From assembly GCA_045805285.1 (NCBI GenBank), contig JBJMLN010000121.1, positions 8,126-72,125 of the forward strand: a stretch of 64,000 nt of DNA, read 5' to 3'. The notes beneath the pieces were generated by a model, which was not told where the DNA came from, ran no database searches, and saw only the letters and a program-made list of their open reading frames with translations. The position numbers and the translations under genes are program-made. The DNA comes from Actinomycetota bacterium (lineage in GTDB: Bacteria > Actinomycetota > UBA4738 > JBJMLN01). Of this stretch, positions 14,337 to 62,431 are shown piece after piece; within the stretch, counting starts at the first letter, position 1, and every line of letters begins with the position of its first letter.

Positions 14337-15149
14337 TCAGGTTCCGTCGGGCGGGTTCATGCTGCCGGAGCGGAACCCCTCCAGGTCGATCGTGACGAAG
14401 CGGTAACCGAGATCTTTCAGCGCGATCGTGACGGCGTTGCGATGCTCGACGAGCCTCGTGATGTCTTGTGGTTCGACCTCGACGCGCGCGACGTCGTCGT
14501 GCACGCGCACGCGCACCTGGCGGAACCCGAGCTCCTTGATCGCTCGCTCCGCCCGGCCGACCTTCGAAAGCTCCTCCACGCCGATCCTCACTCCGAACGC
14601 GAACCGCGACGATAGGCAGGCGGACGCCGGCTTGTCCCAGGTCGGCAATCCGAGCTCCCTGGAGAGCTCGCGCACGTCGTCCTTTCCGAGGCCGGCCTCG
14701 ACGAGCGGATGTCGGATCGCGCGTTCCGCGGCGGCTCTCAGACCGGGCCGGAAATCGCCGAGGTCGTCCGCGTTCGCGCCGGAAACGACGTGTGCGAAGC
14801 CTTCCTGCCGCGCGAGATCTCCGAGGACGTCGTAGAGCTCGGTCTTGCAGTGGTAGCAGCGATCCAAGCCGTTGGCCTGATACGCCTCCATCTGGACCTC
14901 GTGCGTCCGGACGGTGCGGTGCTCGATGCCGATCGTGCGAGCCGTCGCGCGGGCGGTTTCCAGCTCTCCCGGAGGGAGAGACGCCGAGACGGCCGTGACG
15001 GCGAGGGCGCGGTCACCGACGGTCCGTGCCGCGACCGCCGCCACGAGCGCGGAGTCGGCGCCGCCAGAGAACGCCACGAGAACGCTCTCCATCTCCGCGA
15101 TCGTGGAGCTCAGACGTTCGGCCTTCTCGGAAAGGAGGACGACGGCCAT
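14337..15149 (-). CDS. larE: LarE-family ATP-dependent sulfur transferase (PP-loop)
   Basis: VAFSGGADS, RCYHCK, GANADDLGDFRPG, WDKPASACLSSR, GFRSGSMN. Confidence 0.88.
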   Translation of the reverse strand: MAVVLLSEKAERLSSTIAEMESVLVAFSGGADSALVAAVAARTVGDRALAVTAVSASLPPGELETARATARTIGIEHRTVRTHEVQMEAYQANGLDRCYHCKTELYDVLGDLARQEGFAHVVSGANADDLGDFRPGLRAAAERAIRHPLVEAGLGKDDVRELSRELGLPTWDKPASACLSSRFAFGVRIGVEELSKVGRAERAIKELGFRQVRVRVHDDVARVEVEPQDITRLVEHRNAVTIALKDLGYRFVTIDLEGFRSGSMNPPDGT

Positions 15150-15209
15150 GCGCGGCATCCTCCCACACGCATGGGGACCCGCCGTCACCAGCTCTCCCGG
15201 GAACGAAGA

Positions 15210-15236
15210 GCGGGCCCGGCAAGTCGCCGGGCCCGC
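15210..15236 (-). terminator. groEL terminator hairpin
   Basis: Perfect 11-bp stem GCGGGCCCGGC-N5-GCCGGGCCCGC followed by TCTTCGTT on the minus strand. Confidence 0.7.
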
Positions 15237-15302
15237 ATCTTCTGGAGAGAGGGGGGCTCCACCTGGTCGTTCGACGCCCTCGCCCTCGGGGTTCAAGCCG
15301 TT

Positions 15303-16946
<1,644 letters not shown>

Positions 16947-50823: not shown

Positions 50824-50913
50824 GGCGCAGGAGACTAACGGGCGGTTCCGGCCGCAGCGGGAGGCGTGCCTGCGGGTCAGCTGGCCGGGACCGCTGCTAG
50901 GCTTGCCGGACCG

Positions 50914-51525
50914 ATGGACAAGCTCGGACCCCGACATCGCATGTGCCGCCGCGTGGGCGAAGCCCTCTGCGGCCGGCCGAACTGTCCCGCCCTCAAGCGG
51001 CCGTATCCGCCGGGCCAGCACGGCCGAGGCCGTAAGCGCCCGACGGAGTTCCACATGCGCCTGGTGGAGAAGCAGAAGCTCCGCGCGATCTACAACGTCG
51101 GCGAGCGCCAGATGCTCAACTACTTCACGCGGGCGAACTCCCGGAAGGGCGTCACCGGCGAGGAGCTCCTGCGCGAGCTGGAGTCGCGGCTCGACACGGT
51201 GGTGCTGAGGCTGGGGTTCGCGCTCACGATGCGCCAGGCCCGTCAGCTCGTCTCCCACGGACACGTAACCGTGAACGGCAAGCGCGTCGACGTCCCGAGC
51301 GCGAAGGTCAAGCCCGAATCGACGGTCGAGGTCGTTCCGAAGGCGCGCGCCTTCGTCGGCGTCCGCGAGGCGTTGGAGATCGCTCCCGAGCCGCCCGACT
51401 ACCTCTACCGGAACAAGGAGCAGTACCAGGGAACGCTCTCGCGTCTCCCCGAGCGCGACGAGGTTCCACTCCCGGTACCGTTGGAGGAGCGTCTCGTCGT
51501 GGAGTACTACTCGCCGCGCACCTAG
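50914..51525 (+). CDS. rpsD: 30S ribosomal protein S4 (stand-alone)
   Basis: [50 protein letters not shown]. Confidence 0.95.
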
Positions 51526-52142
51526 GCGTCCGGCGTCTCTCCCGGCTCGAGCGCGCGCCTGACGAATCGGACGACCTCGCGCTCGCGCATCTTCAACGCG
51601 GTGCGGCCCTTGTCCTCTCCGACGACGGCGGTCAGGACGCTCGCCTCCGTGAGCGATCCGATCACTGCCGTGTACAAGGTGAACAGCAGCAGCGCCGGGT
51701 CTTGGCGGCGGATCATCCCGTCCTTCATCCCCGTCTCCAGGAACGCCATCGCGCGGATCCGGAGCGGCTCCAGCGCGCCCGCGAAGCGTTGGAACGCATC
51801 CGGCCCGAGCCGTCCGGCTTCGCGGACGAACATCGGGAACTCCGGCCACTCTCCCGCGAGCTGGAACACCGCGTGGATCACCGCCTCCGCGCGGTCCCAG
51901 GCGGAGTCCTTCTCCTCGATCGCCTCGGTGATGGCCTCCGAGAGTCGTTCGCCGGCGGCGGCGAGACACGCCTCCAGCAGCGCCTCCTTCGTCGGGAAGT
52001 AGTACAGGAGCGTTTGCTTGCGGATCCCGACCGCGGACGCGATCGCGTCGAGCGACGTGGCGTTGTAGCCGTCGCGGCCGAACGCCTGGATCGCTTCCTC
52101 GATCAGGAGGTGCTTGCGCTGCTCTCCGCTCGGGCGGGTCAT
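51522..52142 (-). CDS. TetR/AcrR family regulator
   Basis: [36 protein letters not shown]; ATG overlaps the acyltransferase stop. Confidence 0.93.
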
Positions 52143-53044
52143 TTCCAGGCCGACGGCTTCCCGCGACGCGGCGACTTCGAGCCCTCCCAGATACGGAGCC
52201 ATGACGGGCCCTGAGGCCCGGAGGAAGCCGGCGTCTCGCCGTGCTCGGCGCGCTGCAGCGCCTCCCACCACGTCGTGCGGTCTTCGTCGAGGAGCGCCGC
52301 GATCGCCTGGGTCATCCTTCGGGAGACGTCCTGATGCGTCTCTCCCTCCTCGGGATAGAGCGGGCGGCCGTACCGCACCGAGATCGGAGGACGACCCGGC
52401 CTCGGCCAGCTGCGACCCTTCGGCATCGCCGCGTACGCGCCGCGGATGCCGATCGGAACGACGGGGATCCCGAGCTCGATCGACAGTCGCGCAGCCCCGT
52501 GGCGAAAGCGCTGCGTCCACCCGTCTGGAGAGCGACCCCCTTCGGGAAACACGACGAGCGACCAGCCGTCGCGGACGAGCTCCTTGGCGGTATCAGTTGC
52601 GCCGGAACCTCCGGCCCGGTCGATCGGGAACGCCGCGTACGCGAGCGCGGTGAAGGCTCCACGCCACCAGACGTCGAAGAAGTAGTCCTTCGCCGCTCCG
52701 ACCGCCGTCTTCTCGCGGAACCGGTCCGGGAGCGACGTCATGATCAGCGACGCGTCGAGGTGGCTCGTGTGGTTGGAGACGAACATCACGGGGCCGCGGA
52801 CGCCCGCCAGCCGGTCGAGCCCATGGACCCGCGGCGCGGTCTCGCTCCAGACGACCGGCCGCAGCCCGTAGCGGAGGATCAGCTCTCTCGCTGCTCCCGC
52901 CGCCGGCGTCCGCGCCCATGCGGTCGGAAACACATCGGGCTCAGGCTCCGGCGCGTACGGCAGCGCCGACCGCGGAACGAGCGGCCGGCGGCCCCATCTC
53001 CAGCCGCGGGCGATCTCGTTCAGGTCGTCGCGCACGCTCGCCAT
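52139..53044 (-). CDS. Lysophospholipid/glycerol-phosphate acyltransferase (PlsC family)
   Basis: VSNHTSHLD (HX4D), FPEGGRSPDG, VPIGI. Confidence 0.92.
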   Translation of the reverse strand: MASVRDDLNEIARGWRWGRRPLVPRSALPYAPEPEPDVFPTAWARTPAAGAARELILRYGLRPVVWSETAPRVHGLDRLAGVRGPVMFVSNHTSHLDASLIMTSLPDRFREKTAVGAAKDYFFDVWWRGAFTALAYAAFPIDRAGGSGATDTAKELVRDGWSLVVFPEGGRSPDGWTQRFRHGAARLSIELGIPVVPIGIRGAYAAMPKGRSWPRPGRPPISVRYGRPLYPEEGETHQDVSRRMTQAIAALLDEDRTTWWEALQRAEHGETPASSGPQGPSWLRIWEGSKSPRRGKPSAWK

Positions 53045-54627
53045 CAGTGCACGTCCGCGATGGCGAGCGGAGGGTTGTGGAAGTACGTGATCGAGGGGCT
53101 TCTCCCGACAGTCTCGCCCGCCATCTCCAGCGCGTCGGAGAACGACGTCGCCGACCGGAACCCCATCCGCGCGGCCGCCTTGCGATTCCCTCCGACGAAG
53201 ATGACGTCGCCGAGATAGTCGAGCGCGTGCGCTCCCCAGTACCACATGTAGAACGGGTGCACGCCGTGGTACGCGTAGCTCGTCCGATACAGGTTGATGT
53301 ACCAGGGGTCGGTCGCGTACTGCTCCTCGTACTTCGACTCGATCGTGCTCGGGTCCGTCGTCGCCGCAAGAACCTCCTCGTAGAAGTCGACGTAGGAGGG
53401 ATGGTGGATCTGGTTGAACTCCGGCTCCAGCGGATGGAACAGGATCATCGCGCCGCCGGGCCGAACGAGCGGCTTGTTCCGATACATGTTGAACAGGTAT
53501 CCGAGCCCGAGGCAGTGCGCGAGGATCGGGTTCATGATCGAGTTCACGTTGTACGGGCAGATGTACGGGAGCCCGACGACGAGGATGTCGGACTGCCCCT
53601 GCACCTCCACCAGCTGCTGCTTGTGGAGGTTCGCGAGCGTGATCTCGTGGACGGCCTCCGTCTCCCCCGCGGTGACGCCGGTGACCTTGTAGGGCGCCTC
53701 GATGCGGCGGAACACCTCGCGACGGATCCGCGAGGGTGCCATGTCGTTCGCCTTCTTCGCCGCGTAGAACGTCGCCTGGTCGGTGACCGACCACTCCCAC
53801 TCCCGTTTGTTCAGGAACCCGAACTGCTTCGGAAACGTGTCATTGTTGAGAGTCGTCTCGATCGTGAAGATGCGGACGTGCTCGGCGAGCAGGCGACCCA
53901 TCCGCGTCGCGGAGTCGTGGATCGCGGAGTGGCCCTCCCTCGGGTCCATGTACGAGCGCGAGTGCAGCATCGTCTCCACGTTGTGGTGGTGCTTCAACGA
54001 CTTGTAGGAGGCGAGTCCGACCGGCACGGACTTGTGGCCGCCGTCCATCGCGACGAGGTTGATGTTGACGTAGACGATCAGGTCCGACTCCGCGGCGCGG
54101 CGGTTGATCTCCACGTCCTCGCCCCGGTCGGTCACGCCGACATGGAGAAGGTTGTCGCGATCCTCCGCGTCGTGGTTCTTCAGGTGCTTCGGATAGAACG
54201 AGCGGAAGACGCGCTCGCCCACCGCGCGGCGGATCTCCGCGGCGGTCATCCTGCGGTGCAACGAGTTCGCGACGACGAGCTCGACGTCCTCGACGCCCTT
54301 GCGCGCAGCGAGCTCGATCACGTGCTCGATGATCCGCTGCCGGATGTCCGGCGCGACCATCGGCGGCAACGGCAGCGAGATGTCGTCGAACGCGATCGTG
54401 AGCTTCATGTCGGGTTTCAAAAGCTCCGACAGGGGCTCGGAGTTCTGCGGATGAAGGAGCGCGTCGCGAATCGCGGCGTCCACGTCTCCGATGCCCGGCA
54501 GAGGGTCCGGCGGATAGACGACCCGCGTTCCCATCGGAAACTTCTGCAGGCGGAAGCCCTCTCCCTCGTGAACGAGGAGCGGCGGCGTGCGTTCGTCCAC
54601 GTCCAGCACGAATCCCGGTCTCGTCAT
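53044..54627 (-). CDS. LarA (lactate racemase/DUF2088)-domain protein
   Basis: DVDAAIRDALLHP, IAFDDISLP, NSLHRRM, HDAED, INRRAAESDLIV, DGGHKS. Confidence 0.85.
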   Translation of the reverse strand: MTRPGFVLDVDERTPPLLVHEGEGFRLQKFPMGTRVVYPPDPLPGIGDVDAAIRDALLHPQNSEPLSELLKPDMKLTIAFDDISLPLPPMVAPDIRQRIIEHVIELAARKGVEDVELVVANSLHRRMTAAEIRRAVGERVFRSFYPKHLKNHDAEDRDNLLHVGVTDRGEDVEINRRAAESDLIVYVNINLVAMDGGHKSVPVGLASYKSLKHHHNVETMLHSRSYMDPREGHSAIHDSATRMGRLLAEHVRIFTIETTLNNDTFPKQFGFLNKREWEWSVTDQATFYAAKKANDMAPSRIRREVFRRIEAPYKVTGVTAGETEAVHEITLANLHKQQLVEVQGQSDILVVGLPYICPYNVNSIMNPILAHCLGLGYLFNMYRNKPLVRPGGAMILFHPLEPEFNQIHHPSYVDFYEEVLAATTDPSTIESKYEEQYATDPWYINLYRTSYAYHGVHPFYMWYWGAHALDYLGDVIFVGGNRKAAARMGFRSATSFSDALEMAGETVGRSPSITYFHNPPLAIADVH

Positions 54628-54641
54628 GGGTTGAGCTCCCC

Positions 54642-55841
54642 TCAGTTCTGCATCGGATCGAACGCGACCTTGATGGTTCCGAGCTTTCCGGCGCCGAACG
54701 CGTGGTCGATGGCGTCGCGCCAGCGGTTGAGCGGATACGTTGCGCCGACGAGCCGCTTGATCGGCGAGTCGGCAGCGAGCTCCATCGCGATGTCGAAGGA
54801 CGATCGCGTGACGCCGCCGAGCTGCTCCTCGCCGCTCGTGTACGCGCCGACGAGCTCGAGCTCGCGGAACCACACCGGAGTGAGATCCGCGCCGGCGGGA
54901 ATCCCGGTGAGCACCACGCGTCCGCCGGCTTTCGTCGTTCGCAGCGCGAGGTCGAGCGAGCTGCGCGACCCCACACACTCGAGCGTCACGTCGACGCCCC
55001 CGAGCAGGAACGGCATCCCGCGCTCCGGCGTGAGCTTCACAGAACGGGTGGCGCGTCGGAGCGAACCGATCGCGCGGTCCGGCGTCACGGTCTCCGAAGC
55101 GCCGAGCTCCATCGCCAGGTCGCGCTGATGCTCGTGCTTCGCGACGACCGTGATGCGGCCGGCGTCGGTGAGCTTCCGCAGCGCGAGCGTCGCCAGCAGC
55201 CCGACCGTGCCCGCGCCGATCACCAGGACGTCCGAGTCCGGCTCGACGTGGCCGGCCAGTGCCGCGTGGACGGCGCAGGCCAGCGGCTCGATCAGGACGG
55301 CGGGCTCATCGTCGATCGCGTCCGGAACCTCGTGGAGCTGCGACCGGTGCGCGACCAACAGACGGCTCCATCCGCCGCCGGTGTCCTTGCAGTAGCCCGT
55401 CTGCAGGCCGGCCGAGACGTGGCCCTCCGTCACGTGGTCGCAGCGTCCGAGATGACCGGAGGCGCACGCGGCGCACGGTGCGAGTCCCCGCACGTAGCAG
55501 TTCAGAACGGGGTCGAGGACGACGCGGGTGCCGGCCGCCAAGCCGTCCGCGTCGTCGAGGAGCTCTCCGACGACCTCGTGTCCGGGAACGAACGGCAGCG
55601 AGACCAACGGGGAGAAGTAGAACGACGACTTCCCGGCGAGCAGCGCGAGATCCGAGCCGCAGATGCCCGAGAGACGCGGCCTGATGCGAACCCATCCCTC
55701 GGCCGGCGGCTCAGGATCGCGTTTGTTGACCAGCCGCATCGGCGCGAGCGGCCCGGAAAGCAACCCGGGCACGCGATCTCCCACGGCCTTCGCGGCGAGG
55801 AACCGCGGGGCGGAACGGAACAGCTCCAGCGACAGGCTCAT
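54642..55841 (-). CDS. Zn-dependent alcohol dehydrogenase (MDR)
   Basis: SGICGSD, PGHEVVG, C..C..C...C structural Zn, IEPLACAVH, GAGTVG. Confidence 0.92.
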   Translation of the reverse strand: MSLSLELFRSAPRFLAAKAVGDRVPGLLSGPLAPMRLVNKRDPEPPAEGWVRIRPRLSGICGSDLALLAGKSSFYFSPLVSLPFVPGHEVVGELLDDADGLAAGTRVVLDPVLNCYVRGLAPCAACASGHLGRCDHVTEGHVSAGLQTGYCKDTGGGWSRLLVAHRSQLHEVPDAIDDEPAVLIEPLACAVHAALAGHVEPDSDVLVIGAGTVGLLATLALRKLTDAGRITVVAKHEHQRDLAMELGASETVTPDRAIGSLRRATRSVKLTPERGMPFLLGGVDVTLECVGSRSSLDLALRTTKAGGRVVLTGIPAGADLTPVWFRELELVGAYTSGEEQLGGVTRSSFDIAMELAADSPIKRLVGATYPLNRWRDAIDHAFGAGKLGTIKVAFDPMQN

Positions 55842-58123
55842 CGGATCGCTCCGGCCGGCCTCGGAAGGCGCACGCGCGGGGAACCCTCCGCCATGCCCCA
55901 CTCCTCGATCGGCCACCGTCGCCGGCGAGCCGCGCGAAGCAGCGCCGCGTCGGGACTCACCGCCACGGGGTTTCCGACGGCGCGTAGGAGCGGCAGATCG
56001 GAGTGGGAGTCCGCGTACGCGTACGACTTCTTCAGGTCGGCGCCCTCCGCCTCGGCGTAGCGGCGGAGCCACGCGGCCCGCGCCTCTCCCACCAGCGGAG
56101 GCGCCGCCATGTAGCCGGTAAACCGGCCGTCCTTGCGCGCGAGCTCCGCGGCGATCACCAGGTCGAACAGCGCCGCGATCGGCTGCACGAACTCGTCCAT
56201 CGCGGCGGTAATGAGGATCGTGCGGTGTCCGGCCGCGCGGTGCTCGCGGATCCGCCGGATCCCGGCCGCCGAGGTCTTCTGGAACATGAGCTCCGCGACG
56301 ACCTCTCGGACGAGCTTCCGAACGCCCTCGACCGAGGCTCCTTCGTAGCGGCGATAGAACGAGCGCAGGAACTCACCGCGGTCGCGGCGGTCCGCCATCA
56401 GATACGACGGGATGCGTGCCGCGACCGAGAGCATCTCTTTCGGCCACTCGTCGGGAGGAAGGTCCGCGAGTCGCGCCCACACGTAGGACTCCACGACGTT
56501 GGAGGTGAGGATCGTGCCCTCCATGTCGAAGACCGCCAGGCGGAGCTCCTCCCCTTCGGCGATGCGCACCTTCGGCGTCGTCCGCCGGGTGGAGAGGTTC
56601 CGCAAGCTCGACGTCACGGACGGGCAGTGCACGTCTTGGAGGTAGTACTTCCAGTCGATCACCGCGGAGTCGAAATAGAACGCGGCGCGGTCCTCCGCGC
56701 CGAGGGATCGATACAGCTCGAGCGTCCGGTCGTCGGTGTAGATCACCTCCGCCTCCGTGTAGGAGCCGTAGAGATCGGCGTAGCGCCGGATGAAGTCGAG
56801 CCGGTTCTTGTCCTTGTCGACGCGTCCGACGAGATCGCGCATCCGTTTCGACTTCGGGAGATGGCTGACGACCTGGTCGGCAGCCTTCGCGAGCTTCTCG
56901 CCCGTGGAAAGGAGGCGCTCCACCCTGATCGCGCCGGGAAAGCTCCATTCCGGAACTCGGATCTCGCCACGCCCGCGCTCCGGGAGCGGATGCTGTTCGA
57001 AGTACTCCCGCACGATCTCGTAGAGGCCGTGGTACTGGAGCGGGTTCCGGTTCCCCGAGCTCACGTGGAAGTACTGCGCTTTCGCTGGCTCAGGCGGCGT
57101 CGCAGCGACGACCAGCATCGCGTTGACGACGAGGTCGACGGGGATGATGTCGACGATCCCCTCGGGGATGCCCGGGAACTCGGGGATGTTCCCCTGCCCG
57201 TACGCGAGGATGATCGGCTCCGCCATCTTGAAGCCCTCGATCCATCCGGGCTGCGGATGCTCCAGCGCGCTCTCGATGATGGAGGGCCGCACGATCGAGA
57301 GCGGAAGTTCCGCGTCGCGGGCCAGCTCCTCCACCGCGCGCTCTCCCATCGCCTTCGTGAACGTGTAGAGGTCGGGCCATCCGAGCGTCTGCGCCCTCGC
57401 GCGGCCGTAGTTGACGAGGCGCTTCGTGACCCAGTCCTTGCGTCGTTGCTCCGCGTCCGCGGCGACGGTCTGGGGGCCCGCACGGGAGTGCTCCTTGCGC
57501 GCCTCGCCCATGAAATGGTCGAGGAGCTCGGGCTTGCGGGAGGCGGCCTCCACGTCGCGCCGCGCGGTGAGCGCGAGGTCGGCCTCCGTTCGCCAGTCGA
57601 CGCGGTGGTCGAGCGTCGCCTCGGGAACGACCCCCTTCTTCATGCCGGCGACGTAGGCGGTGGAGACGTGCACGAGATGCGGCGTCGAGCCGCTGTCGCG
57701 AACGGCCTCGTAGAACCGCAACGCTCCGAGGAGATTCGTCTGGAAGCCCTCGTCGATGGGGGGGTCGAACGAGACCTCTGCGGCGCAGTGGAGGACGACG
57801 TCGAGGTCGCTCGGGAAGGGTGGAGGAGCCTTGGTGAAGTCGCCCTCGACGATCTCGACCCGGTCGTCGAGGAGCCGGATCAGGCCTTCGTCGCCGTGTT
57901 CCTTGCGCAGCCCATCGAACGCCGGGCGCTTGAGGAGCGTCTCCACGCGATCGCGCCCGGTCGCGCCGAGCTGCGGCCGGACGAGCAGGACGATCCCCGC
58001 GTCAGGCACGGAGGAGAGGACCTTCCCGAACACCGCCTGGCCGAGGAATCCCGTCACACCGGTGATGAGCAGGCGTTTTCCGGCCAGGCGCTCGGCGATC
58101 GGGGCGGAGGAGTTCTCTACCAT
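55838..58123 (-). CDS. Fatty acyl-CoA reductase (NAD_binding_4) fused to HAD-IB phosphatase
   Basis: ITGVTGFLG, HVSTAYV, YTFTK (YxxxK), IVRPSII; C-terminal FDMEGTI...ITAA...YADSHSDLPLL. Confidence 0.9.
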   Translation of the reverse strand: MVENSSAPIAERLAGKRLLITGVTGFLGQAVFGKVLSSVPDAGIVLLVRPQLGATGRDRVETLLKRPAFDGLRKEHGDEGLIRLLDDRVEIVEGDFTKAPPPFPSDLDVVLHCAAEVSFDPPIDEGFQTNLLGALRFYEAVRDSGSTPHLVHVSTAYVAGMKKGVVPEATLDHRVDWRTEADLALTARRDVEAASRKPELLDHFMGEARKEHSRAGPQTVAADAEQRRKDWVTKRLVNYGRARAQTLGWPDLYTFTKAMGERAVEELARDAELPLSIVRPSIIESALEHPQPGWIEGFKMAEPIILAYGQGNIPEFPGIPEGIVDIIPVDLVVNAMLVVAATPPEPAKAQYFHVSSGNRNPLQYHGLYEIVREYFEQHPLPERGRGEIRVPEWSFPGAIRVERLLSTGEKLAKAADQVVSHLPKSKRMRDLVGRVDKDKNRLDFIRRYADLYGSYTEAEVIYTDDRTLELYRSLGAEDRAAFYFDSAVIDWKYYLQDVHCPSVTSSLRNLSTRRTTPKVRIAEGEELRLAVFDMEGTILTSNVVESYVWARLADLPPDEWPKEMLSVAARIPSYLMADRRDRGEFLRSFYRRYEGASVEGVRKLVREVVAELMFQKTSAAGIRRIREHRAAGHRTILITAAMDEFVQPIAALFDLVIAAELARKDGRFTGYMAAPPLVGEARAAWLRRYAEAEGADLKKSYAYADSHSDLPLLRAVGNPVAVSPDAALLRAARRRRWPIEEWGMAEGSPRVRLPRPAGAIR

Positions 58124-58125
58124 CC

Positions 58126-58159
58126 GGTAGATACTGGCATCTACCACTTGGTAGGTCAA
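58126..58159 (-). promoter_or_regulatory. Promoter of the lipid operon with two overlapping inverted repeats (candidate TetR operators)
   Basis: GGTAGAT-N6-ATCTACC (58126-58145), CTACCA-N2-TGGTAG (58141-58154), -35 TTGACC (58154-58159, minus strand). Confidence 0.65.
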
Positions 58160-58220
58160 CACATTCTCACGAACGGAGCGGGAGCTTCGGGGTACGGAAA
58201 CTTCCCGAGGGGGTGTTCGC

Positions 58221-59344: not shown

Positions 59345-62300
59345 CTACCCCTGCAGCTCCTCGAGGAAAGCGCGGGCGTTCGCCTCTTCGACCACGTTGC
59401 CCTTGCGGTGCAGGAGATCCAACGCCTGCTCGACGGCCGCTCGCGCTTCACCGTCGCGGTCCTGGAGGCGCAGGACCTCCGCGAGGCTCATCGACGCCTC
59501 CGCCCGGAGATTCACGTAGTCGGTCGCTCCGACGACCGCGAGCGCCGCACGCGCGAATCGTTCCGCGTCCACGTGCTCGCCCTTCCGTGCGAGCCCTTTC
59601 GCACGCAACATGCGCCAGCGCACGTTCGCGTCGACGTCCCCCTCGATCGTGATGCGCTCGGCGAACTCGGAGATCTCCAGGGCTTCGTCGTACCGGCCCT
59701 GCGCATAGATCGTCTCGCCGAGATCGGGCGCGACGCTGGAGAGATGCCCGAAATCATTGATGCGCTCGTGAATGTCGTAGGCAACCCGGGCCTCCGACTC
59801 GGCCTTCGCCGGTTCGCCTGCACGCATCTCCACGTCCGCGGAGTCACGATGGACCGCAGCGAGGGTCACCTGATCCCCTAGCTTCTCCGCCAGTCGTTTC
59901 CCGTCAGCGATGCACGCGCGCGCGTCGTCGAGCCTGCCGGACATCGACTCGAGCTCCGCACGGGTCCTCGCGGCCGCCAGCTGTACCCGCGGATCGCTGG
60001 CTTCGTTCTCGAAGAGCGTACCGAGACGCCCCAGCGCTTCCTCGACCGGGAGGGGCCCGACGGCCAGCCCCAGCCCCAGCCATCGGGAGATCTCCCCCCG
60101 CTGCCGCACGTCTCCCGCCCGCGCCGCATGATCGAGCGCGCGTTCGAGCAACTCCTTGGATTCCGCGACGTGGCCCTGCCACAAGCGGATCGTGCCGAGC
60201 ATGCTCTCCGCCTCGGACATGCCGCGGTCGTCGCCCCACTCCTCGAAGGAGTCGAGGTATCCACCGGCTTCCGCGAGCGCCGCGGCCTGTTCGATGTCGG
60301 GATCCAGGAGCAGTCGTGCAAGGACGCGTCGCAGCGACGCGCGGGCCACCAGCAACGGGTCGTCGGCGGCACGGGCCGCGTCCACCGCATCGGTCAACGT
60401 GGCCTCCGCCCGCGCGATGTCGACCTGCGCGAGCGCGACGCCGAGCTCCGGAAGCAGCTCCGCGCGGAGATGGTCCTCAGGCGGAAGGAGCTCCACCGCG
60501 CGCTCGAACAGGTTGATGGCGGATTTCACGTCCGCTCGGTCGAGCGCCCGGCGCCCCGCGGCTCCGAGCTCCGTCGCGGCCTCCTTGGCAAGCGCGCGGG
60601 TGTGCTCGTCCGGCGGCCCGAGGTCAACCGCGTACCGGTACGCGCTCTCCAGATGTGCACCTCGGACCTCTCCGAACTCGGCCGCGCGGTCGACCGCCTT
60701 CGCCAGCAGCCACGACGCGAACCGTTCGTGGAGATCCGCCCGCGCCCGCTTCGGCGTCGAGCCGTACGCGGCGTCTCGGACGAGCACGTGACTGAAACGG
60801 AACGCGTCCTCGCCCACGAACGTCGAGGCGTCGGGACGCACGAGCTCCTTCCGCAGAAGCGTCTGCAGATGCGAGCCCACACGCGGACGGAGATCCTCCG
60901 GTGAGAGCTCCGTGACGGCTCCCCACCAGAACGTCCTCCCGATCACCGAGGCACGCTGCACCACCGTGCGTTCGTCGGGCTCGAGCTGATCGAGCCGAGC
61001 GGAGAGCAGCGCGCTGATCGTTCCGGGCACGGAGACCTCGGAGAGGTCCCCCGTCGGGGTCCAGTGTCCGTCGGTCCGCTCGAGCCGGCCCTCGTCGATC
61101 AGCATCCGGAGCATCTCCTCGACGAAGAGCGGATTTCCTTCCGCTGCAGAGGAAATGCGGCGCCCCGTGTCCCCCGTGAGACCCGCTCGGCCGAGGAGGT
61201 TCGCGATCAGCTCCTGCGACTGGTCATCGGTGAGCGGCTCGAGCTCCACGACCCGTGTGTCCCTCACCCAGTCCGGATCGAGCTCCCGGAGCTCCGGGCG
61301 GGAGGTGCCGAGCAACATGACGGGATGACCGCCGCTGAACCGCGTTACGTACTGGAGAAGATCGAGGAACGTCGGCTCAGCCCAGTGGAGATCCTCCAGC
61401 ACCACGATCAGTGGCCGTGCCGCCGCAACGATCTCGAGGAGACGGCGCACGGCCCAGAACGTCTGTTGGACATCGCCCGTCGCGTCCGCGAGGCCGACCG
61501 CCGCGGCGAGGCGCTCCGCGACGTCGTTGCCGTCCACCGAGTCGGATGTGAGCGCGTCGATCTTCGATCGCCGCTCGTCGGGAGCGTCCGTCTCGACCAC
61601 ACCAGCCGCGTCGTCGACGAGCTCCACGACCGGAAGGAGACTGATGCCCTCGCCATACGGAAGGCATCGGGCCCAGAGAACACGGGCTTCGGCGGTCCTG
61701 GTCACGAACTCGTTCACGAGACGCGTCTTGCCGAGGCCGGCGTCGCCGAGCACGGTTGCAGAGGCGCACGCGCGTCGCTCCACGGCTTCGTCGTAGGTCC
61801 GGCGAAGCGCTGCAAGCTCCTCGTCTCGTCCGACGATCGGAGAGTCGAGCCGTCGGGAGAACGGAACCGCGACGTCCAGCACCTCCAGGAGGCGGAACGC
61901 CGACATCCGCTCGCTCTTTCCCTTGAGCTCGAGCGGCTCGACGGCTTCGACGCGGACGGCGTCGCGGACGAGCCTCCGTGTCTCCTCGCCGAGGAGGATC
62001 TCGCCGGGGTCGGCGGCCTGTTCGAGGCGGGCCGCCACGTTGACGGCGTCGCCCGTGACGAACGTCTGGTCGCTGGACGGATCGCCGGCGACCACCTGGC
62101 CGGTGTTGACGCCGGTGCGGATCTCCAGATGGGCGCGCCAATCGCGTTCGAGCTCGGCGTTCAGGGTCCCGAGGAGCTCGCGCATCTCCGAGGCGGCTCG
62201 GACGGCGCGGAGAGCGTCGTCCTCGTGGACGGTCGGAACGCCGAAGACCGCCATCACCGCATCGCCGATGAACTTCTCGACGGTTCCGCCATGCCGCTCG

Positions 62301-62431
62301 ATCGCGGCCCGCATCTCGTCGAAGTAGCGCGACATCACGCCTCGAAGCGACTCGGGATCGAGCTGTTCTCCGAGCGAGGTGGAACCCACCACGTCGGAGA
62401 ACAGGATCGTGACGGTCTTGCGGACCTCCAT
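59345..62431 (-). CDS. Class III adenylate/guanylate cyclase with AAA/STAND ATPase and TPR-like region
   Basis: LFSDVVGST, EKFIGDAV, GDAVNVAARL; GDAGLGKTRL; LEDLHWA. Confidence 0.93.
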   Translation of the reverse strand: MEVRKTVTILFSDVVGSTSLGEQLDPESLRGVMSRYFDEMRAAIERHGGTVEKFIGDAVMAVFGVPTVHEDDALRAVRAASEMRELLGTLNAELERDWRAHLEIRTGVNTGQVVAGDPSSDQTFVTGDAVNVAARLEQAADPGEILLGEETRRLVRDAVRVEAVEPLELKGKSERMSAFRLLEVLDVAVPFSRRLDSPIVGRDEELAALRRTYDEAVERRACASATVLGDAGLGKTRLVNEFVTRTAEARVLWARCLPYGEGISLLPVVELVDDAAGVVETDAPDERRSKIDALTSDSVDGNDVAERLAAAVGLADATGDVQQTFWAVRRLLEIVAAARPLIVVLEDLHWAEPTFLDLLQYVTRFSGGHPVMLLGTSRPELRELDPDWVRDTRVVELEPLTDDQSQELIANLLGRAGLTGDTGRRISSAAEGNPLFVEEMLRMLIDEGRLERTDGHWTPTGDLSEVSVPGTISALLSARLDQLEPDERTVVQRASVIGRTFWWGAVTELSPEDLRPRVGSHLQTLLRKELVRPDASTFVGEDAFRFSHVLVRDAAYGSTPKRARADLHERFASWLLAKAVDRAAEFGEVRGAHLESAYRYAVDLGPPDEHTRALAKEAATELGAAGRRALDRADVKSAINLFERAVELLPPEDHLRAELLPELGVALAQVDIARAEATLTDAVDAARAADDPLLVARASLRRVLARLLLDPDIEQAAALAEAGGYLDSFEEWGDDRGMSEAESMLGTIRLWQGHVAESKELLERALDHAARAGDVRQRGEISRWLGLGLAVGPLPVEEALGRLGTLFENEASDPRVQLAAARTRAELESMSGRLDDARACIADGKRLAEKLGDQVTLAAVHRDSADVEMRAGEPAKAESEARVAYDIHERINDFGHLSSVAPDLGETIYAQGRYDEALEISEFAERITIEGDVDANVRWRMLRAKGLARKGEHVDAERFARAALAVVGATDYVNLRAEASMSLAEVLRLQDRDGEARAAVEQALDLLHRKGNVVEEANARAFLEELQG

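Follow-up and report, generated by a model that had tools for sequence, protein, structure and literature searches.

A TetR-bearing operon of Actinomycetota as a rearranged counterpart of the myxobacterial elb genes, with a LarA homologue as candidate for the ether-bond step

How aerobic bacteria form the alkyl ether bond by the ElbD route has been unsolved since 2014, and ElbC still appears as "?" in reviews. According to the accounts of Lorenzen et al. 2014 given in PMC9131029 and PMC13012113, the elbABCDE genes of Myxococcus xanthus run from MXAN_1531 (elbA) to MXAN_1527 (elbE), with elbD as MXAN_1528, and ElbC is annotated as being of "unknown function". In the literature on M. xanthus, ElbD is required for its alkyl and vinyl ether lipids, the compound observed to need ElbD was a fatty aldehyde rather than an alcohol, and the lipids of this species are described as sn-glycero-3-phospho lipids with the ether at sn-1. 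Here we analyse an operon on the minus strand (58123-51522) of a 64,000-nucleotide stretch of contig JBJMLN010000121.1 from an Actinomycetota bacterium (assembly GCA_045805285.1); this whole stretch is called the window. Judged by homology, the operon is an actinobacterial, domain-rearranged counterpart of the myxobacterial elb gene set, and its LarA homologue (LarAH) corresponds to ElbC. We favour, with some reserve, the reading in which this TetR-controlled, rearranged elb-type set makes a 1-O-alkyl glycerolipid, with LarAH acting as a nickel-pincer enzyme in the ether-bond step; both the product and the LarAH reaction are inferred.

Two further bodies of work bear on this locus. In the AGPS route of eukaryotes and myxobacteria, the ether lipid is made by FAR1, GNPAT, the FAD-dependent alkyl-dihydroxyacetone-phosphate (alkyl-DHAP) synthase AGPS and an acyl/alkyl-DHAP reductase. 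The second is the sorting of LarA homologues into groups by Desguin et al. 2020 (PMC7583248). Table S1 of that paper gives the function of group 14 as unknown and lists neighbours of COG0204, COG0560, COG1063 and COG3320; the one member assayed, the LarAH14 of Frankia, showed no activity in seven 2-hydroxy-acid assays after it had been purified and given the cofactor (PMC7583248). Dataset S2 of the same paper lists MXAN_1529 under group 15. Since the elb locus tags run from MXAN_1531 (elbA) to MXAN_1527 (elbE), MXAN_1529 is ElbC, and ElbC is, by this classification, a LarA-type protein, as can be derived from public data (Dataset S2 plus the elb locus tags). Thus, both the elb cluster (biochemically unsolved) and LarAH group 14 (function unknown) are already in the literature; in the searchable literature we found no paper joining LarA, the nickel-pincer cofactor or lactate racemase with ether lipids, ElbC or an acyltransferase. 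Note that a lead equating LarAH15 with gluconate epimerase was discarded: in the 2024 paper the name LarAH15 stands for an enzyme from Phytophthora that belongs to the GntE branch, whereas MXAN_1529 falls in the group 15 defined in 2020, which is something else.

The operon starts with the gene for a 761-aa fusion protein (58123-55838), in which a fatty acyl reductase (FAR) is followed by a haloacid dehalogenase-type (HAD) domain. It continues with the genes for a Zn-dehydrogenase (55841-54642, 399 aa), LarAH (54627-53044, 527 aa), an acyltransferase (AT; 53044-52139, 301 aa) and, in last position, a TetR regulator (52142-51522, 206 aa), all on the minus strand. The first and last junctions are 4-nt ATGA overlaps, LarAH and AT overlap by 1 nt (TGATG), and a 14-nt gap with GGGGAG separates the Zn-dehydrogenase from LarAH. 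This confirms a real operon of five translationally coupled genes, and the coordinates, junctions and Pfam domains agree with the original prediction, made by a model from the letters of the window, of five tightly coupled genes at 51522-58123. As that prediction also held, there is no FAD-dependent alkyl-DHAP synthase here: no AGPS-type gene lies in the operon or adjoins it.

The domains and motifs of the encoded proteins are well preserved. In the fusion protein, the reductase part (NAD_binding_4 plus a Sterile-like C-domain, residues ~1-505) matches PF07993 (4.6e-46), with PF03015 (Sterile) under its cut-off, and has the fatty acyl-CoA reductase 7eoz as its closest solved structure (E 8e-50, residues 8-504); the HAD-IB phosphatase-type domain (~528-740) matches PF12710 (2.4e-34). 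The reductase motifs GxxGxxG, STAYV and YTFTK are intact and kept in the relatives, as are HAD motifs I (D-x-(D/E)-G-T) and IV (DSxSD). AT is of the PlsC/AGPAT type (PF01553, 5.4e-22), and its blocks NHxSHxD (HX4D), FPEGxRS and VVPI are kept in the relatives; LarAH matches PF09861 (Lar_N, 2.3e-40) and TetR matches PF00440 (4.6e-14). The Zn-dehydrogenase (PF08240 plus PF00107) has a Cys (GICGSD), a His-Glu pair (PGHE), EPLAC and four structural Cys that are likewise kept, and its closest solved relatives are xylitol, sorbitol and threonine dehydrogenases, ketose reductase and galactitol-1-P 5-dehydrogenase. It looks like a zinc medium-chain dehydrogenase/reductase (MDR) of the polyol/threonine-dehydrogenase, that is secondary-alcohol, type; it does not resemble a fatty-aldehyde reductase.

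The relation to the elb genes is carried by several pieces of the two loci. The M. xanthus locus encodes a short-chain dehydrogenase/reductase (SDR; ElbA), a HAD protein (ElbB), a Lar_N protein (ElbC), the multidomain ElbD (NAD_binding_4, Sterile, AMP-binding, PP-binding and Acyltransferase) and a second SDR (ElbE). LarAH is 48% identical to ElbC over 521 aa (E 1e-179), FAR matches the N-terminus of ElbD (E 4e-46), AT matches its C-terminus (E 5e-22), HAD matches ElbB (E 2e-29) and the Zn-dehydrogenase has no match among the elb proteins. In the reverse search of the source genome with the Elb pieces, the operon was the best match for ElbC, for ElbD-FAR, of which it was the sole match, and for ElbD-AT (E 4e-20 with AT). 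The reductase and acyltransferase domains said earlier to be common to the operon and ElbD were thus found, and the comparison went further, with LarAH as a homologue of ElbC and HAD as a match of ElbB. In both loci a LarA homologue, a HAD-IB domain, a FAR-like reductase and an AGPAT-type acyltransferase are clustered and co-directional. They differ in that elb has the reductase fused to acyl-CoA synthetase (ACS), acyl carrier protein (ACP) and acyltransferase modules, whereas here it is fused to HAD and AT is a separate protein; in addition, this operon has an appended TetR gene and an actinobacterial host.

LarAH scores 911.8 bits against the NCBIfam model NF052592 (LarAH14/15/16; cut-off 740) over residues 6-526; this match covers its full length and assigns it to group 14 as defined by Desguin et al. 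2020. LarAH has the residue signature of the group 14 rows in Dataset S2, a pattern that Franean1_4168 and Rxyl_2107 also show, and its gene neighbours have the COGs given in Table S1 (PMC7583248); it shows no real difference from this family. HMMER alignments and Dataset S2 show that D72, H108, K184 and H200 of LarA are kept as D82 (equivalent of the ribose-binding Asp), H124 (first catalytic His, in NSLHR), K199 (cofactor tether, in GGHKS) and H215 (nickel ligand, in KHHHN). These alignments place H124, K199 and H215 as had been supposed from the motifs alone. The four residues are invariant in sets of 45 and 189 sequences. When 80 sequences of group 14 and 109 of group 15 are compared, conservation reaches 97% or more at 112 positions, and D81/D82, H124, K199, H215, Y359, H454 and H457 are invariant across both groups.

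The same alignments and Dataset S2 show what LarAH lacks. Where LarA has its second catalytic His (H174), the alignment shows a gap or Asn, and none of the carboxylate binders is kept: R75 is replaced by Leu or Ile, Q295 by a gap and K298 by Asn. In the source protein the R75 position is Leu, within D82-I-S-L85, in agreement with the missing Arg of the DxTR motif noted originally. Compared with LarA of L. plantarum (PDB 5HUQ), LarAH has the fold, the Lys tether, the nickel-binding His, one catalytic His and the ribose-binding Asp in common; it is ~100 residues longer, has neither the second catalytic His nor the carboxylate-binding Arg, Gln and Lys, and is not expected to act on lactate. Without the second His and the residues that bind a carboxylate, LarAH should not be filed as a hydroxy-acid racemase. 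We had considered this classical role and rejected it on these residues and on the inactivity of the Frankia LarAH14.

Structure comparison leads to the same part of the family. The AF2 model of LarAH (pLDDT 92.8) is predicted to have the two-domain LarA fold. A structure search with it gave 19 chains of the LarA family at E<=1e-14, and its best PDB matches, 9q3k (TM 0.85) and 9q3j (TM 0.83), come ahead of the true racemases. These belong to LarASp and LarABw of group 17 (PDB 9q2u/9q3k and 9q3j; PMC12611868), the best PDB matches to LarAH in both sequence and structure. LarASp and LarABw hold the nickel-pincer nucleotide (NPN) covalently on the Lys equivalent to that of LarAH, and a ligand is bound as well (PMC12611868). 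As in LarAH, Asn replaces the second catalytic His, and a Tyr (Y359) and a His (H457) near the ligand site are shared. They differ from LarAH in overall sequence (20-23% identity), in having Lys where LarAH has Leu at the R75 position, in their His306, which is Pro in LarAH, and in gene context, which is glycolytic (triose and sugar-phosphate) for them and lipid for LarAH.

Some more distant copies were also seen. Group 16 of Dataset S2 (FRAAL3757, Francci3_2278 and MLP_28440) is a second, strongly diverged copy in Frankia and Microlunatus, in which the tether Lys is changed to Gly or Ala and the catalytic His is sometimes lost; its genes still lie beside COG0204 and COG0560 genes, and it is possibly a non-catalytic paralogue. 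Relatives of about 40% identity, under the cut-off, lie beside family III CoA-transferases or unrelated genes, not beside lipid genes, and are thus uninformative on this cassette. In two genomes of another family (L102, 5605-8515; L104, 6977-9930) such a ~40%-identical LarA homologue, with 500-536 bits against NF052592, adjoins a family III CoA-transferase; these proteins are a separate uncharacterised subgroup that may act on hydroxyacyl-CoAs.

We scanned species-representative genomes with LarAH, obtaining more than 592 relatives, and compared the gene order around the best 80 of them. Apart from one Streptomyces locus without the dehydrogenase, these loci keep FAR::HAD, Zn-dehydrogenase, LarAH and AT in this order wherever the contig reaches; the originally proposed co-occurrence check looked for such a cluster. 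The cassette is found in Frankia, Actinomadura, Micromonospora, Actinoplanes, Nocardioides, Kribbella and Streptomyces, and also in Jiangellaceae, Pseudonocardiales and many metagenome-assembled genomes. It is not a chance arrangement: the gene order recurs across many actinobacterial genera. By its gene content the cassette is a variant of the elb-type cluster. LarAH is always its best-conserved protein, with 65-78% identity compared with 44-73% for the others. Clustering of 2700 flanking open reading frames (ORFs) from the 80 loci gave as recurrent neighbours only larB, larC, larE, TetR and their antisense frames. When 401 sampled genomes of the phylum were scored with the LarAH14 family model, 98 were over its curated cut-off, as were 27 of the 32 belonging to the source genome's own order. 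Note that two loci of one genus (L092 and L096) have ~800 bp of extra DNA inside the operon, between FAR::HAD and the dehydrogenase (L096, 3966-4397), with a small ORF whose start resembles a ribbon-helix-helix (CopG-like) fold.

The genes for cofactor synthesis accompany the cassette in many of these genomes. In the source genome LarB, LarC and LarE are all over their cut-offs, and LarAH is the only Lar_N protein. The larE gene, for the sulfur transferase of nickel-pincer cofactor synthesis (TIGR00268, 340 bits), lies in the window at 14337-15296 on the minus strand, with the match itself at C121:22480-23253 (window 14355-15128). It is separated from the operon by ~37 kb and directly follows groEL (15303-16925, minus strand); larB and larC form a neighbouring pair on another contig (C23:16137-17487). 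In 20 of the 80 loci larB-larC-larE directly adjoin the cassette, on either side, and LarC is present in all 23 named cassette genomes. Counted by hand over the phylum sample, LarC occurs in 87 of 98 LarAH14-positive and in 188 of 303 LarAH14-negative genomes, and outside the source genome's order in 70 of 71 LarAH14-positive ones. Since the cofactor residues are invariant, larBCE adjoin the cassette in a quarter of the loci and the source genome has larBCE, use of the nickel-pincer cofactor by LarAH is plausible. As a separate observation, LarC is found in 275 of the 401 sampled genomes, far more than carry LarAH14, so other users of the cofactor must be common in the phylum; G232, of the same genus as G037 and G410, has LarC and no LarAH14.

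In the mechanism that we propose, the FAR domain would convert acyl-CoA or acyl-ACP into a fatty aldehyde or alcohol. LarAH, with a tethered nickel-pincer cofactor and a single catalytic His, would take the C2 hydride of glycerol 3-phosphate (G3P) or 1-acyl-G3P, giving a transient DHAP-like ketone that would activate C1 for ether-bond formation; AGPS chemistry needs the same C2-ketone intermediate for the exchange at C1. The absence of a carboxylate site, the single base, the relatives in a triose-phosphate context and the PlsC or PlsY neighbours together point to a substrate of the glycerol-phosphate type, not a hydroxy acid. Two variants can be drawn. In variant (a), an AGPS-like exchange, 1-acyl-G3P would react with a fatty alcohol and the hydride would return to C2, with no separate ketoreductase; cassettes lacking the dehydrogenase agree with this variant. 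In variant (b), a reductive etherification, the fatty aldehyde would take the hydride at its alkyl carbon, and the resulting alkyl-DHAP would be reduced by the polyol-type Zn-dehydrogenase, in whose stead elb would use the SDRs ElbA and ElbE; the ElbD-dependent aldehyde of M. xanthus agrees with this one. The PlsC-type AT would then acylate sn-2, and HAD would dephosphorylate an intermediate or the product, a step that alkyl-diacylglycerols like the TG-1 of M. xanthus would require. The expected product is a 1-O-alkyl-2-acyl-glycerol(-phosphate) lipid.

The AGPS route would need steps of the same kinds: a source of the fatty alcohol or aldehyde, transfer of an acyl group, an intermediate with a ketone at C2 and a ketoreductase. 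The operon differs in having no FAD-dependent AGPS, which leaves the LarA-fold protein as the only candidate for the ether step. The more specific proposal that LarAH14/ElbC is the AGPS-independent ether-bond enzyme of aerobic bacteria, a nickel-pincer "hydrogen-borrowing" catalyst that would take the C2 hydride of a glycerol-phosphate backbone, join a fatty aldehyde or alcohol to it through a C1-O-alkyl bond and return the hydride, is one that we advance tentatively and regard as less probable than not being so.

Several observations weigh against an ether-lipid operon with a nickel-dependent LarAH. The lipid product, the activity and the nickel of group 14/15 proteins are deduced from homology and gene context. 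The ACS and ACP modules of ElbD are absent from the operon, the Pfam scan of whose proteins gave no AMP-binding and no PP-binding domain, and the only ACS-like match to ElbD in the source genome lies on another contig. The operon has no counterpart of the SDRs ElbA and ElbE; it has the Zn-MDR dehydrogenase instead, which has no elb counterpart and is missing from at least one Streptomyces locus. In that locus (L088, Streptomyces sp. NPDC057702) no Zn-dehydrogenase lies between FAR::HAD and LarAH, with larE, larB and larC just upstream, so the dehydrogenase is not an obligatory part of the cassette. ElbB matches a second HAD-IB protein of the source genome about equally well. For M. xanthus, insertions are described in elbA, elbB, elbD and elbE only, not in elbC. 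We know of no report of ether lipids for most of the genera with the cassette, which is an absence of reports only.

A further point concerns the cofactor. LarC is lacking in ten LarAH14-positive genomes of the source genome's own order, and nine of the ten are also without LarB and LarE in the HMM searches, which gave only PurE-like and PP-loop paralogues; the tenth, G310, lacks LarC. The LarC protein of the source genome, used as a query, had no match in the nine, and the same query found a 65-67% identical LarC in three sister genomes, which have larB, larC and larE. The nine genomes (loci L092-L100: G410, G206, G344, G139, G037, G399, G097, G245 and G388) include one-contig (3.13 Mb) and two-contig assemblies, and they keep the intact five-gene operon and all cofactor-type motifs. 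Either LarAH works without the cofactor in these genomes, or the lineage gets the cofactor in another way. The original idea of nickel-pincer chemistry in lipid synthesis therefore stands in part: the residues and the larBCE linkage speak for it, and the linkage is not universal.

These nine genomes are an argument for a LarA-fold protein that serves an ether-lipid or other lipid operon without any nickel-pincer cofactor, as a scaffold, a substrate-binding subunit or by Lys/His chemistry of its own, for example through a Schiff base of the conserved Lys with an aldehyde or ketone. Closed or nearly closed genomes are among them, their LarAH is as conserved as elsewhere (73-76% identity to the source LarAH) with three sister genomes having all three lar genes, and the Frankia LarAH14 with NPN was inactive in the assays tried. 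We nevertheless consider this explanation unlikely. The larBCE genes directly adjoin the cassette in 20 of the 80 loci, and LarC accompanies LarAH14 outside the source order in all genomes except one; no variation is seen at the tether Lys, the nickel-binding His or the ribose-binding Asp; NPN is covalently bound in the closest solved relative; and the source genome has no other LarA-family user of the cofactor.

Another explanation would dispense with the ether bond. The operon could make ester lipids, fatty alcohols or wax-type lipids, with LarAH inverting or isomerising a small polar building block. A FAR and an acyltransferase also follow the logic of a wax-ester route, a head group made of a phosphorylated polyol could be the substrate of the polyol-type dehydrogenase and the HAD phosphatase, and to our knowledge ether lipids are undocumented for most host genera. 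However, the acyltransferase is of the PlsC/AGPAT type, not WS/DGAT, four modules have counterparts in the elb operon, where ElbD is required to make ether lipids, and the cassette occurs in Rubrobacter, a genus rich in such lipids. On balance we judge an operon without ether lipids to be quite unlikely.

The Rubrobacter locus deserves a closer description. In Rubrobacter radiotolerans (L091, CP007514.1, 3841-9581) plsY, FAR::HAD, Zn-dehydrogenase and LarAH lie in a row; the gene for PlsY, the G3P acyltransferase, abuts the reductase gene, and there is no PlsC-type gene downstream. By its annotation, plsY is a direct link between the cassette and the acylation of G3P. For the Rubrobacterales, ~46% ether-linked core lipids are reported in a 2023 study, as related in papers citing it. 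The co-occurrence of the cassette in Rubrobacter and of ether lipids in Rubrobacterales is a correlation only. A putative 1-O-alkylglycerol phosphate operon resembling that of other aerobic bacteria is said to have been described in the 2023 work on these lipids.

Finally, a classical two-base LarA that racemises the glycerol-phosphate backbone (G3P to glycerol 1-phosphate, G1P) or 2-hydroxy fatty acids would fit the LarA fold with its cofactor residues, a C2 secondary alcohol of glycerol phosphate that could pass through DHAP and an account of the Rubrobacter ether lipids that gives no stereochemistry, but it is highly improbable: the second catalytic His for inversion and R75, Q295 and K298 are absent, the Frankia LarAH14 is inactive on seven hydroxy acids, and, with a single base and with the lipids of the elb carrier M. 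xanthus described as sn-3 with the ether at sn-1, the G3P/G1P epimerisation raised in the original prediction is unlikely.

Returning to the favoured reading, of a TetR-controlled operon, we analysed the region upstream of the first gene (58117-58160, minus strand) by sequence and inverted-repeat search. In minus-strand order it holds a -35-like TTGACC, the palindrome CTACC-aagt-GGTAG, a -10-like TATCTA and a second palindrome, CTACC-ggat-GGTAG, which contains the ATG of the first gene. The layout TTGTCTACC-N4-GGTAGA ... CATAATCTGCC-N4-GGTAGAGA, with the start codon within it, is found 5' of the first gene in 10 of the 13 TetR-bearing relatives examined. The two CTACC-N4-GGTAG palindromes are probably an operator pair, a candidate site for the operon's own TetR. 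Since the ATG lies within the second palindrome and the layout is kept in TetR-bearing relatives, a leaderless or near-leaderless transcript, repressed by the operon's own TetR, is suggested. Note that, among the 80 best loci, TetR is linked to the cassette solely in the closest relatives.

The operon is bounded on one side by rpsD (50866-51525, plus strand), which is convergent with TetR; the two ORFs stop at 51525 and 51522, respectively. A small methyltransferase-like ORF and the gene for a 1028-aa adenylate-cyclase/AAA/TPR-type regulator (59345-62431, minus strand) flank it on the other side.

A LarA-type ElbC family without the acid-binding site and linked to larBCE is a testable candidate for the unsolved ether step, and the lineages that have the operon without larBCE are a natural experiment on the need for the cofactor. 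The family may represent a new reaction class for the nickel-pincer cofactor; if true, this would be the first LarA-family reaction other than 2-hydroxy-acid inversion and the first role of nickel in membrane-lipid synthesis. With the cassette in about a quarter of the 401 sampled genomes of the phylum, it could account for non-isoprenoid alkylglycerols in the environment and for the Rubrobacterales ether lipids; if LarAH14/ElbC is the ether-bond enzyme, Actinomycetota would be a major source of the alkyl-glycerol ethers of soil.

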